Shown here: one piece after another, positions 13,145 to 42,170 of the stretch | How positions within the stretch are numbered: the stretch's first letter is position 1 | Layout of the letters: every line of letters begins with the position of its first letter | Assembly (NCBI RefSeq): GCF_055900595.2 | Contig: NZ_CM148325.1 | DNA length: 64,000 nucleotides | Strand: one strand, 5' to 3' | Program-made: the position numbers and the translations under genes | The notes under the pieces: generated by a model | What the model saw: only the letters and a program-made list of their open reading frames with translations | What the model was told of the DNA's origin: nothing | The model's database searches: none

Positions 13145-13290
13145 TCGGTAGGCCGGATAAGGCGCTCGCGCCGCATCCGGCTACGGTGCCGACTGCCTGA
13201 TGCGACGCTCGCGCGTCTTATCAGGCCTACAAATTCTCGCACCATCCGGCAACGGTGCCTAATGCGACGCTTACCGAGTCTTATCAGCCC
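13145..13290. repeat. Cluster of REP (repetitive extragenic palindromic / BIME) units
   Basis: Repeated ggccggataaggcg...cgccgcatccggc and gcctgatgcgacgc...gtcttatcaggcctac motifs in alternating orientation. Confidence 0.8.
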
Positions 13291-14741: not shown

Positions 14742-15758
14742 ATGAACGCTAAGATAATTGCCTCGCTGGCCTTCACCAGCATGTTCAGCCTCAGCACCCT
14801 GTTAAGCCCGGCGCACGCCGAAGAGCAGGAAAAGGCGCTGAATTTCGGCATTATTTCAACGGAATCACAGCAAAACCTGAAACCGCAATGGACGCCGTTC
14901 TTACAGGATATGGAGAAGAAGCTGGGCGTAAAGGTCAACGCCTTCTTTGCCCCGGACTACGCGGGCATTATCCAGGGGATGCGCTTCAACAAAGTGGACA
15001 TCGCCTGGTACGGCAATCTGTCGGCGATGGAAGCGGTGGATCGCGCCAACGGTCAGGTCTTCGCCCAGACGGTCGCGGCGGATGGATCGCCGGGTTACTG
15101 GAGCGTGTTGATCGTCAACAAAGACAGTCCGATCAACAACCTGAACGATCTGCTGGCAAAGCGTAAAGATCTCACCTTCGGCAATGGCGATCCTAACTCC
15201 ACCTCTGGCTTCCTCGTCCCCGGCTACTACGTCTTCGCCAAAAACAATATCTCCGCCAGCGACTTCAAGCGCACCGTCAACGCCGGGCATGAAACCAACG
15301 CGCTGGCCGTCGCCAACAAGCAGGTGGATGTGGCGACCAACAACACCGAGAACCTCGACAAGCTGAAAACCTCCGCACCGGAGAAGCTCAAAGAACTGAA
15401 GGTGATCTGGAAATCGCCGCTGATCCCAGGCGATCCGATCGTCTGGCGCAAAAATCTTTCCGAAACCACCAAAGACAAGATCTACGACTTCTTTATGAAC
15501 TACGGCAAAACGCCGGAAGAGAAAGCGGTGCTGGAGCGCCTGGGCTGGGCCCCGTTCCGCGCCTCCAGCGACCTGCAACTGGTGCCGATTCGCCAGCTCG
15601 CGCTGTTTAAAGAGATGCAGGGCGTGAAAGGCAATAAAGGGCTGAATGAGCAGGACAAGCTGGCAAAAACCAGCGCCATTCAGGCGCAACTGGATGACCT
15701 GGACCGCCTGAACAACGCGTTAAGCGCGATGAGTTCGGTGAGTAAAGCGGTGCAGTAA
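14742..15758 (+). CDS. phnD: Phosphonate ABC transporter periplasmic binding protein
   Basis: 338 aa with an N-terminal signal peptide; follows phnC. Confidence 0.9.
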   Translation: MNAKIIASLAFTSMFSLSTLLSPAHAEEQEKALNFGIISTESQQNLKPQWTPFLQDMEKKLGVKVNAFFAPDYAGIIQGMRFNKVDIAWYGNLSAMEAVDRANGQVFAQTVAADGSPGYWSVLIVNKDSPINNLNDLLAKRKDLTFGNGDPNSTSGFLVPGYYVFAKNNISASDFKRTVNAGHETNALAVANKQVDVATNNTENLDKLKTSAPEKLKELKVIWKSPLIPGDPIVWRKNLSETTKDKIYDFFMNYGKTPEEKAVLERLGWAPFRASSDLQLVPIRQLALFKEMQGVKGNKGLNEQDKLAKTSAIQAQLDDLDRLNNALSAMSSVSKAVQ

Positions 15759-15768
15759 TGTGCTCGAT

Positions 15769-15861
15769 CGGTCCCCTCTCCCTTGAGGGAGAGGGTTAGG
15801 GTGAGGAAGAAATGCGCACGCTGGTGCCCTCACCCCGGCCCTCTCCCACAGGGAGAGGGAG
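15769..15861. repeat. Pair of GC-rich palindromic units (ccctctccc-loop-gggagaggg plus ttagggtgagg / cctcaccccgg) in inverted orientation
   Basis: Perfect 9-bp stem-loops seen directly; the same unit recurs at 21122-21231. Confidence 0.6.
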
Positions 15862-15883
15862 AAAACATTAAACGGAGCCAAAC

Positions 15884-16663
15884 ATGCAAACCATCACCAT
15901 TGCCCCACCCAAGCGCAGCTGGTTCTCGATCTTCAGCTGGGCCATTGTTCTCGCCGTACTGGTCGTCTCGTGGCAGGGCGCGGAAATGGCCCCGCTCACG
16001 CTGATTAAAGACGGCGGCAACATGGCGACGTTCGCCGCCGACTTCTTCCCGCCCGATTTCAGCCAGTGGCAGGATTACCTCACCGAAATGGCCGTCACGC
16101 TGCAAATCGCCGTCTGGGGCACCGCGCTGGCAGTCGTTCTCTCCATCCCCTTCGGCCTGATGAGCGCCGAAAACCTGGTGCCGTGGTGGGTTTACCAGCC
16201 CGTTCGCCGCCTGATGGACGCCTGCCGCGCCATTAACGAGATGGTCTTCGCCATGCTGTTCGTGGTCGCCGTCGGTCTCGGTCCGTTCGCTGGCGTACTG
16301 GCGCTGTTTATCCACACCACCGGCGTGCTCTCCAAACTGCTTTCCGAAGCGGTAGAAGCAATTGAACCCGGCCCGGTGGAAGGCATTCGCGCCACCGGTG
16401 CCAACAAGCTCGAAGAGATCCTCTATGGCGTGCTGCCGCAGGTGATGCCGCTGCTAATCTCCTACTCCCTCTATCGCTTCGAATCCAACGTCCGCTCGGC
16501 CACCGTTGTTGGCATGGTCGGCGCTGGCGGGATCGGCGTCACGCTGTGGGAAGCGATTCGCGGTTTCCAGTTCCAGCAAACCTGTGCCCTGATGGTGCTG
16601 ATTATCGTCACGGTCAGCCTGCTGGATTTCCTCTCTCAACGGTTGCGTAAGCACTTTATCTGA
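15884..16663 (+). CDS. phnE: Phosphonate ABC transporter permease, apparently intact
   Basis: 259 aa uninterrupted ORF with multiple TM segments. Confidence 0.85.
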
Positions 16664-20345: not shown

Positions 20346-21100
20346 ATCAACCGTTACTTTCGGTCAATAACCTGACCCACCTTTACGCGCCGGGCAAAGG
20401 CTTCAGCGATGTCTCTTTTGATTTATGGCCGGGGGAAGTGCTGGGCATTGTCGGGGAATCCGGTTCCGGGAAGACCACGCTGCTGAAATCAATCTCCGCC
20501 CGTCTGACGCCGCAACAGGGGGAGATTCACTATGAAAACCGTTCCCTCTATGGCATGAGCGAGGCCGACCGCCGTCGCCTGCTGCGCACCGAATGGGGCG
20601 TGGTGCATCAGCATCCGCTCGACGGCCTGCGCCGCCAGGTCTCGGCAGGCGGCAATATCGGCGAACGGCTGATGGCGACCGGGGCGCGTCATTACGGCGA
20701 CATTCGCGCCACCGCGCAGAAGTGGCTGGAAGAGGTGGAGATTCCCGCCAACCGTATCGACGACCTGCCGACCACTTTTTCCGGCGGTATGCAGCAGCGT
20801 TTGCAGATTGCCCGCAACCTGGTGACGCATCCGAAGCTGGTGTTTATGGATGAACCGACCGGCGGGCTGGATGTATCGGTACAGGCGCGCCTGCTCGACC
20901 TGCTGCGCGGCCTGGTGGTGGAACTGAACCTGGCGGTGGTGATTGTCACCCATGATTTAGGCGTCGCCCGCCTGCTGGCGGACCGTTTGCTGGTGATGAA
21001 GCAGGGGCAGGTGGTGGAGAGTGGGTTAACCGACCGCGTGCTCGACGACCCGCATCACCCGTATACCCAGTTGCTGGTGTCATCGGTTTTGCAGAATTGA
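20342..21100 (+). CDS. phnK: C-P lyase accessory ATPase PhnK (ABC-type NBD)
   Basis: 252 aa from MNQPLLSVNNLTHLY; Walker A GESGSGKTTLL. Confidence 0.85.
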   Translation: MNQPLLSVNNLTHLYAPGKGFSDVSFDLWPGEVLGIVGESGSGKTTLLKSISARLTPQQGEIHYENRSLYGMSEADRRRLLRTEWGVVHQHPLDGLRRQVSAGGNIGERLMATGARHYGDIRATAQKWLEEVEIPANRIDDLPTTFSGGMQQRLQIARNLVTHPKLVFMDEPTGGLDVSVQARLLDLLRGLVVELNLAVVIVTHDLGVARLLADRLLVMKQGQVVESGLTDRVLDDPHHPYTQLLVSSVLQN

Positions 21101-21121
21101 ATGCAACACCGTGCGCGCTGA

Positions 21122-21231
21122 TCCCCTCACCCCGGCCCTCTCCCGGAGGGAGAGGGAGAAAACCGGCGCAATATTCAACACCGCGCACAATCGGTCCCCT
21201 CGCCCCTTCGGGGAGAGGGTTAGGGTGAGGG
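21122..21231. repeat. Two GC-rich palindromic units of the same family as 15769-15861, flanked by caacaccg(t)gcgc motifs
   Basis: cccctcaccccggccctctcccggagggagaggg and cggtcccctcgccccttcggggagagggttagggtgagggg seen directly. Confidence 0.6.
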
Positions 21232-21276
21232 GCAATGCGCGCACCGCTCCCCAATATGCGAACCACGAGGCGAAAA

Positions 21277-21957
21277 ATGATTAACGTACAAAACGTCAGT
21301 AAAACCTTCATCCTGCACCAGCAAAACGGCGTGCGCCTGCCCGTCTTACAACGCGCCTCGCTCACCGTCAACGCGGGCGAATGCGTGGTGCTCCACGGTC
21401 ACTCCGGCAGCGGCAAATCGACCCTGCTACGTTCGCTGTACGCCAACTATCTGCCCGACGAAGGGCAAATCCAGATTAAACACGGTGACGAATGGATAGA
21501 CCTGGTCACCGCCCCAGCGCGCAAAGTGGTGGAAATCCGCAAAACCACTGTCGGCTGGGTAAGTCAGTTTCTGCGCGTCATCCCGCGTATTTCGGCACTG
21601 GAAGTGGTGATGCAGCCGCTGCTCGATACCGGCGTTCCGCGTGAAGCCTGCGCCGCTAAAGCCGCCCGATTACTGACGCGCCTGAACGTGCCTGAACGCC
21701 TGTGGCACCTGGCACCATCGACCTTCTCCGGCGGCGAACAGCAGCGCGTCAACATCGCCCGTGGCTTTATCGTCGACTATCCGATTCTGCTGCTGGATGA
21801 ACCCACCGCCTCGCTGGACGCCAAAAACAGCGCCGCCGTAGTGGAACTGATCTGCGAAGCCAAAGCCCGCGGCGCGGCCATCGTCGGTATCTTCCATGAC
21901 GAAGCCGTACGCAATGACGTCGCCGACCGCCTGCACCCAATGGGAGTCTCTTCATGA
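21277..21957 (+). CDS. phnL: C-P lyase accessory ATPase PhnL (ABC-type NBD)
   Basis: 226 aa from [11 protein letters not shown]; Walker [12 protein letters not shown]. Confidence 0.85.
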
Positions 21958-35994: not shown

Positions 35995-36165
35995 TAGGCC
36001 TGATAAGACGCGGCAAGCGTCGCATCAGGCATTGATGTCGGATGCGGCGTAAACGCCTTATCCGACCTACAAAATCACGCTAAATCAGGCTATTGCGCAG
36101 TCTGGCGTAGGCCTGATAAGACGCGGTAAGCGTCGCATCAGGCATCCACACATTGCCGGGTGTAT
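35995..36165. repeat. Cluster of REP/BIME units
   Basis: Three copies of gtaggcctgataagacgcg...cgtcgcatcaggc / ggatgcggcgtaaacgccttatccgacctac in alternating orientation. Confidence 0.85.
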
Positions 36166-38815: not shown

Positions 38816-40490
38816 CGCGCTTCCTCCCCCGCCATCCGCTTAACAATGCGCCCGCAATCATCAACAATCCTCCCCCCCAGATCCAGCGCACACCGCGTTG
38901 TACATACAAACGAAAAGCGTAACGATCCGGTCCGGTTTTCTCGCCCATGACCGCATACCAGTCATGGATGCCGTTCCAGCGAATTGACGGTTCCATCATT
39001 TGCTGACGACGTGCTTCGTAAAAACGCCGCTCCGGCGTTAATTCACCAATGCGTTGCTGATGGTCAAACAGCGCCACTATCGCTTTTTCGCTGGTGTAAT
39101 TGCCTTTGGCTTGCAGATCGAGGCGCTCAAAACGGAAGGTGTATCCTGCCAGAGTCACCTGCTGACCCGGCTGTAAATTCAGGCTGATCTCCTGATGGCT
39201 GACGCTTGAAACCACGATCCCCGCGGCAAATAACAGCACACCCGCATGCGCCAGCAGCGCCGGAAGCTGCACGCGTTTGCCAGAGACAAACGTCGCCAGC
39301 ACAATCACCACCAGCATCAACAGACCAAACGGTAACGTCGCGCGGTTAAAATACGGCGCGCCAACGGAGAGGCGTCCCCAGCCCAGCAGGCCGTAAATCA
39401 TCGGATAAAGCGTTCCCACCAGCACTATCAGTAGCACTGCGCAAAACAGCAACAGCGTAGCGAGGATTAACATTTCCCGCGATAACCCCGAAAAACGCAC
39501 CGCCGGGCCACCGTCCCGCGCTCGCCAGCCATACAGAGCCAGAGACGCAAGGCTAATCAGTGCAAACAGGCTGAACAACGGCACGGCGCGGACGTTATCC
39601 AGTGCGAACGCATGAACCGAAACCAGAATGCCAGAACGGACAATTAAGGTGCCCAGCAGCGACAGCATCAGAGTAACTATCGCCAGTAACAGCGACCAGT
39701 GGCGGAAAATCCCCCGCTGGCGTGTCAGGGACAAACTGTGCAGCAGCGCAGTGGCAGAAAGCCAGGGTAATAAAGAGGCGTTTTCCACCGGGTCCCAGAA
39801 CCACCAGCCGCCCCAGCCCAGTTCGCAATAGGCCCACCAGGAACCAAGGATGATCCCCGCCGTTAATGCGCTCCAGCCAGGTAGTGCCCAACGCCAGCAA
39901 ATTCGGGCGTTGACACCATCAAACTCGCCGCGCAGTAGACTCGCCAGCGCCACGCTCGCCGCTACCATCAAACCGCCATAGCCAAGATAAAGCAGCGGTG
40001 GATGAAAGATAAGACCGGGATGTTGCAGCATCGGATTGAGATCGCGACCTTCGATTGCTGGTGGAAATATCCGCACGAAGGGATCGGACCACAGCACCAC
40101 AAACAGTAGCAGTGCGGCGAGCATGAGAGATAAAACGGCTAGCGTCAGCGGAAATAGCGGATCGGTTTGCTGCCGATAATGCCAGGCAAACAGCGCGCTC
40201 CACGCGGAAAGGAGTAGCACCCAAAGTAGCAGCGAACCTTCATGCCCTCCCCACACTGCCGCCAGTTTGAGTTCCCACGACAGCAGGCTGTAGCTATGTT
40301 GGGCGACATAAATGACCGAGAAATCGCTGATGAGAAAACAATACGTCAGTACGCCAAAAGCGATCAGCAGGAGCGCGAACTGTGCCAGAGTGCCGATGCA
40401 AGTGAGTCGCATCATGGCAGGCCAGCGCAACCGCACTCCCGCAAAGGTTGTCAACGGGGTCAACACGTTGACCCCAAGACTTAACAACAA
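38808..40490 (-). CDS. nrfE: Heme lyase NrfE (CcmF-like); exact start uncertain
   Basis: ~552-560 aa polytopic membrane protein with CcmF-like Trp-rich segments; operon position. Confidence 0.8.
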   Translation of the reverse strand: MLLSLGVNVLTPLTTFAGVRLRWPAMMRLTCIGTLAQFALLLIAFGVLTYCFLISDFSVIYVAQHSYSLLSWELKLAAVWGGHEGSLLLWVLLLSAWSALFAWHYRQQTDPLFPLTLAVLSLMLAALLLFVVLWSDPFVRIFPPAIEGRDLNPMLQHPGLIFHPPLLYLGYGGLMVAASVALASLLRGEFDGVNARICWRWALPGWSALTAGIILGSWWAYCELGWGGWWFWDPVENASLLPWLSATALLHSLSLTRQRGIFRHWSLLLAIVTLMLSLLGTLIVRSGILVSVHAFALDNVRAVPLFSLFALISLASLALYGWRARDGGPAVRFSGLSREMLILATLLLFCAVLLIVLVGTLYPMIYGLLGWGRLSVGAPYFNRATLPFGLLMLVVIVLATFVSGKRVQLPALLAHAGVLLFAAGIVVSSVSHQEISLNLQPGQQVTLAGYTFRFERLDLQAKGNYTSEKAIVALFDHQQRIGELTPERRFYEARRQQMMEPSIRWNGIHDWYAVMGEKTGPDRYAFRLYVQRGVRWIWGGGLLMIAGALLSGWRGRKRDE

Positions 40491-40545
40491 CGCCAGAAAA
40501 CCGACTTCAGGAAGGAATACGTCCAGAAACCACCTCTTTTCTGGC

Positions 40546-41502
40546 TTACGCCACCGTCAACTGCCCAGCGTAGAGAATGAAAAAGCGCAGCATCAACACC
40601 CCGACCAGGCTGGCCCCACACGCCGCCAGCACGGCAGGAATCCCGGAACTGCGATTGACCCACGGTTTGAGCAACATTGGCACAATCAGCCCCAGCCCGG
40701 CGACACCAAGCCAGAACCACCACGTCCAGAAACCACCGCCCAATGCTGCCACCAGCGCACGCACTTTGCCGTCATCGCCCAGCGCCAGGCCAACAAAAAA
40801 CGCCACCAGCAGGAAGATTTCGCCCCATACCACAGGGATTTCCATCCGGTGAACAAAGTGCGCTTCCGTGGAATGCGGATTACTGCGCTGGCGTATCGCC
40901 ATAGCGATCAACGCCACCGCCGCACCGGACGAGATGCCGGAGAAGAGGAATAGCACCGGTAAAATCGGATTATTGAGGAACGGATATGATTTCAGCGCAG
41001 ACAGCAGAAAGCCGGTATAAGCCCCCAGCAACACCGCCAGCACCAGCATCAGCGTTTCCAGTCCGCGGTGAACGGGCGTCAGCAGGCTCAGAACCTTTTG
41101 CACAATTCCCAGCTTCGGCAACCAGCGTTGTTGCAGGGCAAGCAAATCATGTTCAAAGATTTTCGCCAGCCACAACACCAGCACCACCATGTAGAGCTGA
41201 AACAGCATCACCCCCATCGACATCACCGAGGTAAAACTGTAGTGGAACATCAGCTTCCAGAAGGTCCACGGTCTTGTCAGGTGGAAGACGAGGATCAACA
41301 GACCGAGGATCACCGCGCCAGGCCCGACAATCAGCGTGGTGCGCAGCAACGTACTGTCTGCACCGCCCGCCTGTGGGTAGAAGCGACGTAACAGCACGGC
41401 CAGCGTCACCAGACCGGCAGAAATACCAATCAAAAACAGGTAGATGGCAATCGGCCAGTCCCACACCAGCGATTCAAAATGAAATGCGGAAGTCTGCGTC
41501 AT
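40546..41502 (-). CDS. nrfD: Nitrite reductase membrane subunit NrfD (putative quinol oxidase)
   Basis: 318 aa, 8-TM NrfD/PsrC family. Confidence 0.85.
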   Translation of the reverse strand: MTQTSAFHFESLVWDWPIAIYLFLIGISAGLVTLAVLLRRFYPQAGGADSTLLRTTLIVGPGAVILGLLILVFHLTRPWTFWKLMFHYSFTSVMSMGVMLFQLYMVVLVLWLAKIFEHDLLALQQRWLPKLGIVQKVLSLLTPVHRGLETLMLVLAVLLGAYTGFLLSALKSYPFLNNPILPVLFLFSGISSGAAVALIAMAIRQRSNPHSTEAHFVHRMEIPVVWGEIFLLVAFFVGLALGDDGKVRALVAALGGGFWTWWFWLGVAGLGLIVPMLLKPWVNRSSGIPAVLAACGASLVGVLMLRFFILYAGQLTVA

Positions 41503-42170
41503 TGGCTCACCTCCCCGTATTTAAACGGTACGCGGTACAGCTTCGGTTTGGTTCCCAGCGCCAGCTTGTAGCGGTAAGTGGGCTTCTGGCGTAGCAGTTG
41601 CGAAATCTCACTGTTGGGATCGTCCAGATTGCCAAACGTCAGCGCCTTCGTCGGGCAAGCCTCAACGCACGCGGGGAGCTTACCGGCCTGCAAATTGGTC
41701 TTACGGCAGAAATCGCATTTGTCCGCCGTCTTCGTGACCGGATGGATAAAGCGCACGCGGTACGGACAGGCGGCGATGCAGTACTGACAACCGACGCAGA
41801 GATCTAGGTTAACATCGACAATCCCGCTGGCAGCATCGCGAAAAGACGCACCCGTTGGGCAGACGTCAACGCACGGTGCATGGTCGCAGTGCTGGCAAGA
41901 CTTACGAAAGAAGCGATATTTCACATCAGGAAATTCGCCCTGCGGCTCGCTACGAATAATTGTCAGGCGCGAGACGCCTTCCGGCACCTTGTTCACTTCC
42001 CGACAAGCATCCATACAGGCAGTACAGCCGATGCATAACGACTCGTCATGCACCATGCCGTAACGCACCCCATTGATATTCAACGTTTTCGCCACCACGC
42101 GTCCTGCGGTGCCGCTGACGGCTGCCAGCACGCCGACGCCGGTGAGAAACTGGCGACGAGACCAGGTCAT
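41499..42170 (-). CDS. nrfC: Nitrite reductase Fe-S subunit NrfC
   Basis: 223 aa; Tat signal RRQFL; several CxxCxxCxxxCP 4Fe-4S motifs. Confidence 0.85.

Follow-up and report, generated by a model that had tools for sequence, protein, structure and literature searches.

Two inverted hairpin units fill the phnD-phnE spacer

The phnD-like reading frame of the 64-kb window (the whole stretch of DNA analysed here) ends at 15758 with a TAA codon (15756-15758), and the phnE-like frame that follows is intact, begins at 15884 (15884-16663) and encodes 259 aa; in the K-12 lineage, by comparison, phnE is annotated as a frameshifted pseudogene. The window is E. coli DNA, with 100% identity to a few strains and 95-99% to the rest. 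A 3-kb nrf stretch (40000-43000) matches 8 of 5,426 genomes at 99% identity or above and 5,412 at 95-99%; so few close matches imply that the E. coli lineage behind the window is uncommon and rather divergent.

The 125-nt spacer between the two genes holds two mutually inverted units, each built on a perfect 9-bp hairpin. A previous reading of the letters alone (the sequence-only reading) had proposed this arrangement and it is borne out, both the hairpin pattern and the 20-mer GGGAGAGGGTTAGGGTGAGG having an expectation of 0.00 matches in shuffles of the window. The units share a general design, CCCTCTCCC-loop-GGGAGAGGG-(TTA or CCG)-GGGTGAGGG, in which the family-defining element is a third block, GGGTGAGG(G), located 3' of the purine arm and of a second loop. 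Together they form a 108-bp doublet on the plus strand (15759-15866) that runs from TGTGCTCGATCGGT through a type A unit, a linker and an inverted type B unit to AGAAAAC, its ends reading TGTGCTCGATCGGT...GGGAGAAAAC. Unit A (15774-15807, plus strand) reads CCCTCTCCC / TTGA / GGGAGAGGG / TTA / GGGTGAGGA: the pyrimidine arm CCCTCTCCC (15774-15782) and the loop TTGA are followed by the purine arm GGGAGAGGG (15787-15795), the TTA second loop that makes it type A, and the third block GGGTGAGG (15799-15806). The linker (15808-15826) carries the 3' flank motif ATGCGCAC, which is conserved and common to both units in a four-unit alignment. Unit B (15827-15859, minus strand) is of type B, with CCG as its second loop, and reads CCCTCTCCC / TGT / GGGAGAGGG / CCG / GGGTGAGGG; on the plus strand this appears as CCCTCACCC (15827-15835), CGG, CCCTCTCCC (15839-15847), ACA and GGGAGAGGG (15851-15859). 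The closing AGAAAAC (15860-15866, plus strand) forms the outer flank conserved in type B units, adjoining both type B units of the window and a copy in the hrpB-mrcB spacer described below. Beyond it lies unique spacer (15867-15883, plus strand) with the phnE ribosome-binding region ATTAAACGGAGCCAAAC; the stretch CGGAGCC...ATG is the only part of the spacer that all E. coli alleles have in common. A short inverted repeat also brackets the cassette (TAATGT at 15756-15761, ACATTA at 15865-15870).

The sequence-only reading had described both hairpins as flanked by ttagggtgagg or its complement, which is accurate for unit A; unit B has CCG in place of TTA and thus carries the complement of ccggggtgagg. 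What it did not recognise in this "flank" is the third block of an intrastrand triplex motif. A register check shows that, in all four units found in the window, the G-rich third block can align antiparallel with the purine arm, with no triads other than G·G:C, A·A:T or T·A:T (8/9, 9/9, 9/9 and 9/9) on stems of 9/9, 9/9, 9/9 and 9/10 pairs. Both phnD-phnE units have complete Watson-Crick stems (9/9); unit B reaches 9/9 purine-motif Hoogsteen triads, and unit A stops at 8/9 because the last base of its third block is A, not G. Across the four-unit alignment, an AATCGGT-like flank precedes type A units, GTTTTCT precedes type B units, and the third block is followed by an (A/G)(T/C)GCGCGCAC-like 3' flank.

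The phnK-phnL spacer holds a second doublet

When up to three mismatches to the 20-mer are allowed, the window contains four matches: the two phnD-phnE units and two more at 21125-21230. The latter belong to a second doublet, also absent from the sequence-only reading, in the long spacer that comes next in the operon (phnK-phnL, 21111-21244). Here the order is B then A, with a type B unit on the minus strand (21124-21156), a type A unit with one stem mismatch on the plus strand (21196-21232) and the third blocks pointing outward. The window has no copies beyond these four units. The RNA of this region (21090-21290) is predicted to fold at -98.7 kcal/mol (z = -6.65). Of 5,426 E. coli genomes, 545 have the phnK-phnL doublet in full; in K-12 and most other E. 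coli, two REP units take its place.

The units are members of the BoxC family

The exact 20-mer GGGAGAGGGTTAGGGTGAGG is present in K-12 in the ycjD-fabI spacer, that is, upstream of fabI; a BoxC copy was also sought downstream of fabI in K-12 and none was found there. The ycjD-fabI site is catalogued as TM-ECO no. 9 in a supplementary table (Holder et al. 2015, PMC4666352), and sharing the exact 20-mer with a catalogued member places the window units in the TM-ECO family. TM-ECO and BoxC are one family: BoxC was rediscovered as a "potential intrastrand triplex" (PIT) by the Maher laboratory and then studied as TM-ECO (PMC4666352). It is counted among the known stem-loop repeat families of E. 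coli, at 56 bp and 32 copies (PMC2267715), and the TM-ECO description gives a 37-nt consensus, 23 copies in MG1655 that are always intergenic, TTA and CCG as the second loops of types A and B, and five inverted pairs that always join A with B (PMC4666352). Both doublets of the window obey this A-with-inverted-B pairing.

We are therefore close to certain, from sequence comparison, that the two units are one copy of the BoxC (PIT, TM-ECO) repeat, so that the tentative "boxC-like" label of the sequence-only reading proves apt. The name BoxC reportedly goes back to Bergler et al. in 1992 and Bachellier et al. in 1999, and that of the PIT element to Hoyne et al. in 2000. The likeness extends to the three blocks, the A and B types, the inverted pairing, the intergenic chromosomal location, the roughly 20 copies per genome, the variability of loci between strains and the collapse of pairs to a single hairpin. 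Nothing essential differs, the window type A unit merely having one degraded third-block base, and the phn sites set themselves apart from the published TM-ECO set only by being missing in K-12. The names of the phn genes do not occur in the available text of the supplement (Holder et al. 2015, PMC4666352), which fits with K-12 having no BoxC at either phn spacer. A search of the literature for newer functional work on BoxC/TM-ECO, or for comments on the phn spacers, returned none.

A genome-wide search gives the same picture. Searched with a 56-nt unit, 5,426 complete E. coli genomes have a median of 17 matching places each, and up to 28; 81,288 places are chromosomal and 39 lie on plasmids, and the 20 copies listed have no annotated feature beneath them. 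Scanned against Rfam 15 at permissive E-values, the spacer yields only sub-threshold, spurious matches to microRNA hairpins and no family for the element. Family membership and copy number are thus established: the doublet, a type A unit with an inverted type B unit, is a common BoxC form and belongs to a repeat present many times on the chromosome, rather than being a regulator specific to phn. Both the repeat family and this configuration are already known, and one more copy in itself adds little.

Could the units instead be divergent REP/BIME sequences, mobilised by a REP-associated tyrosine transposase (TnpA-REP/RAYT)? Their inverted doublet does resemble a BIME or a REPIN, and like REP/BIME they are palindromic and rich in GC, frequently form inverted pairs, and lie inside operons just past binding-protein genes, as in the malE-malF and hisJ-hisQ spacers; moreover, REP units fill exactly the same two phn spacers in K-12 and most E. 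coli. However, REP is defined by a conserved GTAG (or CGTC) tetranucleotide ahead of its palindrome (PMC8266576), and neither precedes the palindromes here, the unit flanks being GATCGGT and GTTTTCT. REP patterns run across the window have no match in 15759-15883, so the motif is not an ordinary REP variant, and the units have no sequence similarity to the REP units of the window. The sites that the sequence-only reading had cited as REP do hold REP-type sequence (13149-13229, 35995-36143 and 46613-46688), and its separation of the two kinds of repeat is upheld. In addition, no target-site duplication is visible when the phnD-phnE and hrpB-mrcB copies are compared. BoxC also differs from REP/BIME in having no known transposase partner and in its third block, which is no part of a REP. 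A REP origin thus appears extremely improbable.

The doublet recurs as a unit

That the entire doublet recurs at an unlinked position is established by the hrpB-mrcB spacer: HB101, O157:H7 and many other strains have there a 93.5% identical version of the 108-bp composite, with the same sharp ends as at phnD-phnE. No target-site duplication is visible, on comparison of two filled sites, no empty site having been found. Furthermore, two tandem doublets (251 nt) occupy the phnD-phnE spacer of a record titled Pseudocitrobacter faecalis DSM 27453. The same-ended recurrence and the tandem duplication together suggest, at the level of sequence, that the doublet is copied as a unit. In this, it is reminiscent of REPIN/MITE-like elements, inverted doublets copied as units to unlinked loci with tandem duplication possible, and "small non-autonomous element", as the sequence-only reading had put it, is a fair description of its behaviour. 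It differs from these elements in that no target-site duplication is visible at the two filled sites compared, and that only the hairpin arms serve as terminal inverted repeats. As for the Pseudocitrobacter-titled record, its locus has ~95% DNA identity to the window over ~3.7 kb, as close as most E. coli; this is unexpected for another genus and could be explained by gene transfer or by a labelling problem.

Within E. coli the spacer is swapped between BoxC and REP

Among 5,426 E. coli genomes, 3,744 carry classical REP units of the K-12 type at phnD-phnE and 348 the full BoxC doublet. BoxC-derived spacers in the same orientation (at least 80% of a 521-nt query covered) total 1,338, from which we estimate about 990 collapsed, single-hairpin forms (1,338 minus 348). 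The comparison with strains that lack the unit, which the sequence-only reading had called for, reveals what that reading did not foresee: a highly polymorphic site, at which a K-12-type REP allele is the common state. The common collapsed allele, CCCCTCTCCCACAGGGAGAGGG, results from a deletion between the two hairpins. One strain, SCU-172, has a collapsed cassette in the opposite orientation, and Leclercia and Lelliottia have the BoxC cassette reversed at phnD-phnE; going by their sequences, such reversed cassettes may have arisen by inversion or by independent insertion. The K-12 REP units bear GTAG tags at both phn spacers, and at both the entire stretch from the stop codon to the ribosome-binding region is swapped between alleles. 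Every E. coli allele examined nevertheless keeps at least one GC-rich hairpin.

TM-ECO loci are known to vary between strains more than control spacers do, with pairs collapsing through a "palindrome effect" (PMC4666352); the collapse observed here matches that effect and is found again in Enterobacter chuandaensis. At the DNA level, the doublet would then behave as an unstable, triplex-capable palindrome, prone to collapse by deletion between its hairpins. Whether this instability is itself a function is a separate matter: the element could form a transient intrastrand triplex or G-quadruplex during replication and act as a hot spot of adaptive variation or as a replication pause. Oligonucleotides of both types do form very stable triplexes in vitro (Tm 70-82 C, by CD and NMR; PMC4666352), the G-rich strand contains three to four runs of G3, and the greater variability of TM-ECO loci is matched by strong polymorphism at phnD-phnE. 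Yet, once the complementary strand is there, the duplex prevails; in vivo DMS footprinting failed to detect the triplex, and NMR argued against a quadruplex (PMC4666352). The third block of unit A is degraded (8/9 triads), and a palindrome alone can explain the variability, any adaptive value of which is speculative. For the 108 nt as single-stranded DNA, ViennaRNA predicts a hairpin only (-32.9 kcal/mol, z = -6.1). Purine-motif triplexes, finally, do not form in RNA (PMC4666352), and the third block would therefore matter only on DNA. Taken together, these points make a DNA-level function improbable.

A strong stem-loop is predicted in the phn transcript

The RNA from 15745 to 15900 is predicted to fold into one long hairpin at -77 kcal/mol (z = -7.0), the base of which lies 13-15 nt past the phnD stop and about 17 nt ahead of the phnE start. 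Transcribed within the phn operon mRNA, the doublet would thus form a single, very stable stem-loop. Such a structure could block 3'-to-5' exonucleases or, given its proximity to the phnD stop codon, may hinder the terminating ribosome, and either action would shift the ratio of the phnC and phnD products to those of phnE and the genes downstream. REP units or unique hairpins would play this part elsewhere, in other strains and species.

This proposal borrows from REP biology: by analogy, the best-supported role that we infer for the doublet is that of a strong intercistronic stem-loop, as for REP in binding-protein operons. That role of REP units is reportedly owed to the work of Higgins, Newbury and colleagues. 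The known effects of REP are twofold, stabilisation of the upstream mRNA and, where the repeat lies within 15 nt of the stop codon, a reported reduction in the translation of the preceding gene (Liang et al. 2015, as relayed in PMC12306157). We think it probable that the doublet is a known BoxC repeat which acts most likely as an intercistronic mRNA stem-loop and as a collapse-prone palindrome. That it really affects phn expression is a more tentative proposition, which for a model built on predicted folds we would put somewhat below an even chance.

The sequence-only reading had anticipated both an RNase-protective hairpin and an attenuator. The second idea, in which the hairpins would halt part of transcription past phnD, has some appeal: the hairpins sit right behind a binding-protein gene, as attenuating terminators typically do, and several orthologous spacers of Pseudomonas and Stutzerimonas consist of a hairpin followed by a T-rich tail. 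In the window, however, no T-run follows either hairpin, the plus strand reading GGGAGAGGGAGAAAACATT, and a promoter and terminator scan of 15400-16200 returned a single terminator-like site, on the minus strand, and nothing relevant on the plus strand. In published reporter assays, moreover, PIT elements showed neither promoter nor terminator activity and did not impede RNA polymerase, according to the summary of these earlier tests in PMC4666352. Attenuation becomes very unlikely given the missing T-run and the inactive PIT assays. An intrinsic terminator was considered as a candidate and rejected, since the GC stem has no direct U-tract, the tail after the hairpin being AGAAAACAUU; the doublet cannot terminate in this way.

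The protective hairpin fares better, with indirect comparative support from strong folding that is specific to the phnD-phnE junction (see below). The form in which it had been proposed needs correction, however: the boundary that the spacer would set separates phnC and phnD from phnE and downstream genes, not the transporter genes from those of the C-P lyase.

Strong folding marks the phnD-phnE junction across species

A scan with PhnE returned 80 loci, and the phnD-phnE spacers were sorted for 30 Enterobacteriaceae and 49 others (79 species). BoxC-derived spacers account for 12 of the 30 enterobacterial ones, in both orientations and both architectures, the single hairpins being those of Enterobacter chuandaensis and Buttiauxella. 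REP-type palindromes fill about 14 of the 30, a unique 11-bp hairpin fills three (Atlantibacter), and one, from a MAG, is short and unstructured. Outside the Enterobacteriaceae, many of the 49 loci (Pseudomonas, Stutzerimonas, Marinobacter, Burkholderiales and others) have a unique GC-rich hairpin that usually begins 6-16 nt past the phnD stop, several with a T-rich tail. The hairpins of Pseudomonas and Stutzerimonas start 6-11 nt past the stop and several run into such tails, so that, judged by sequence, these spacers resemble partial terminators placed between the same two genes. Of the 49, about ten are shorter than 30 nt and unstructured; a stem-loop between phnD and phnE is therefore not obligatory.

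The phnC-phnD junction serves as a control for these folds. In the Enterobacteriaceae, z-scores of -3 or below are reached by 26 of 28 phnD-phnE spacers (median MFE -44 kcal/mol) vs none of 7 phnC-phnD spacers (median length 24 nt). In other Proteobacteria, the corresponding numbers are 12 of 42 for phnD-phnE (median MFE -26.8 kcal/mol) and 0 of 38 for phnC-phnD (median MFE -5.5 kcal/mol). Strong folding thus belongs to the phnD-phnE junction itself and is conserved in position and not in sequence.

One reading of this pattern is that phnD-phnE constitutes a conserved "stem-loop slot": selection would keep a strong RNA hairpin just a few nucleotides past the phnD stop across Proteobacteria, and the Enterobacteriaceae would fill this slot interchangeably with BoxC doublets, collapsed hairpins or REP units. 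We offer it tentatively, as possible and rather unlikely. If true, it would give BoxC a REP-like post-transcriptional role, as a decay barrier or in translation control near the stop codon, and this would be the first function assigned to the family.

The main rival to any such role is that the doublet is a neutral passenger, a selfish or junk repeat in an insertion-tolerant spacer with no measurable effect on phn expression. Indeed, about 30 years of work have not found a function for BoxC/PIT/TM-ECO, according to PMC4666352, and TM-ECO copies adjoin genes of all functional classes (PMC4666352). The site sequence is unconserved even within E. coli, BoxC, REP and collapsed forms being freely swapped there, a state of affairs that also fits a tolerant spacer collecting palindromic repeats; and a second doublet sits at phnK-phnL, where there is no obvious need for differential expression. 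A neutral passenger would not, however, be expected to account for strong folding at phnD-phnE and not at phnC-phnD, for unique hairpins 6-16 nt past the stop in lineages apparently without BoxC or REP, or for the retention of at least one GC-rich hairpin in every E. coli allele examined. With evidence on both sides, neutrality is a possibility to be taken seriously, if not the one that we would bet on. Overall, the interpretation given in the sequence-only reading is partly supported.

For the stem-loop proposal, the replacement of BoxC by REP at both phn spacers is a useful feature: doublet, collapsed hairpin and REP alleles form a natural swap set with which one could ask whether BoxC acts on mRNA as REP does. 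The added value of the present comparison is modest and lies in this set of swaps and in the stem-loop-slot pattern.

One by-product of the repeats concerns annotation. Open reading frames of 53, 73 and 141 aa run through them (15720-15881 on the minus strand, 15783-16004 on the plus strand and 20946-21371 on the minus strand) and encode PHPNPLPQGRG-like peptides; these are most likely products of the repeat itself that gene callers could mistake for genes.
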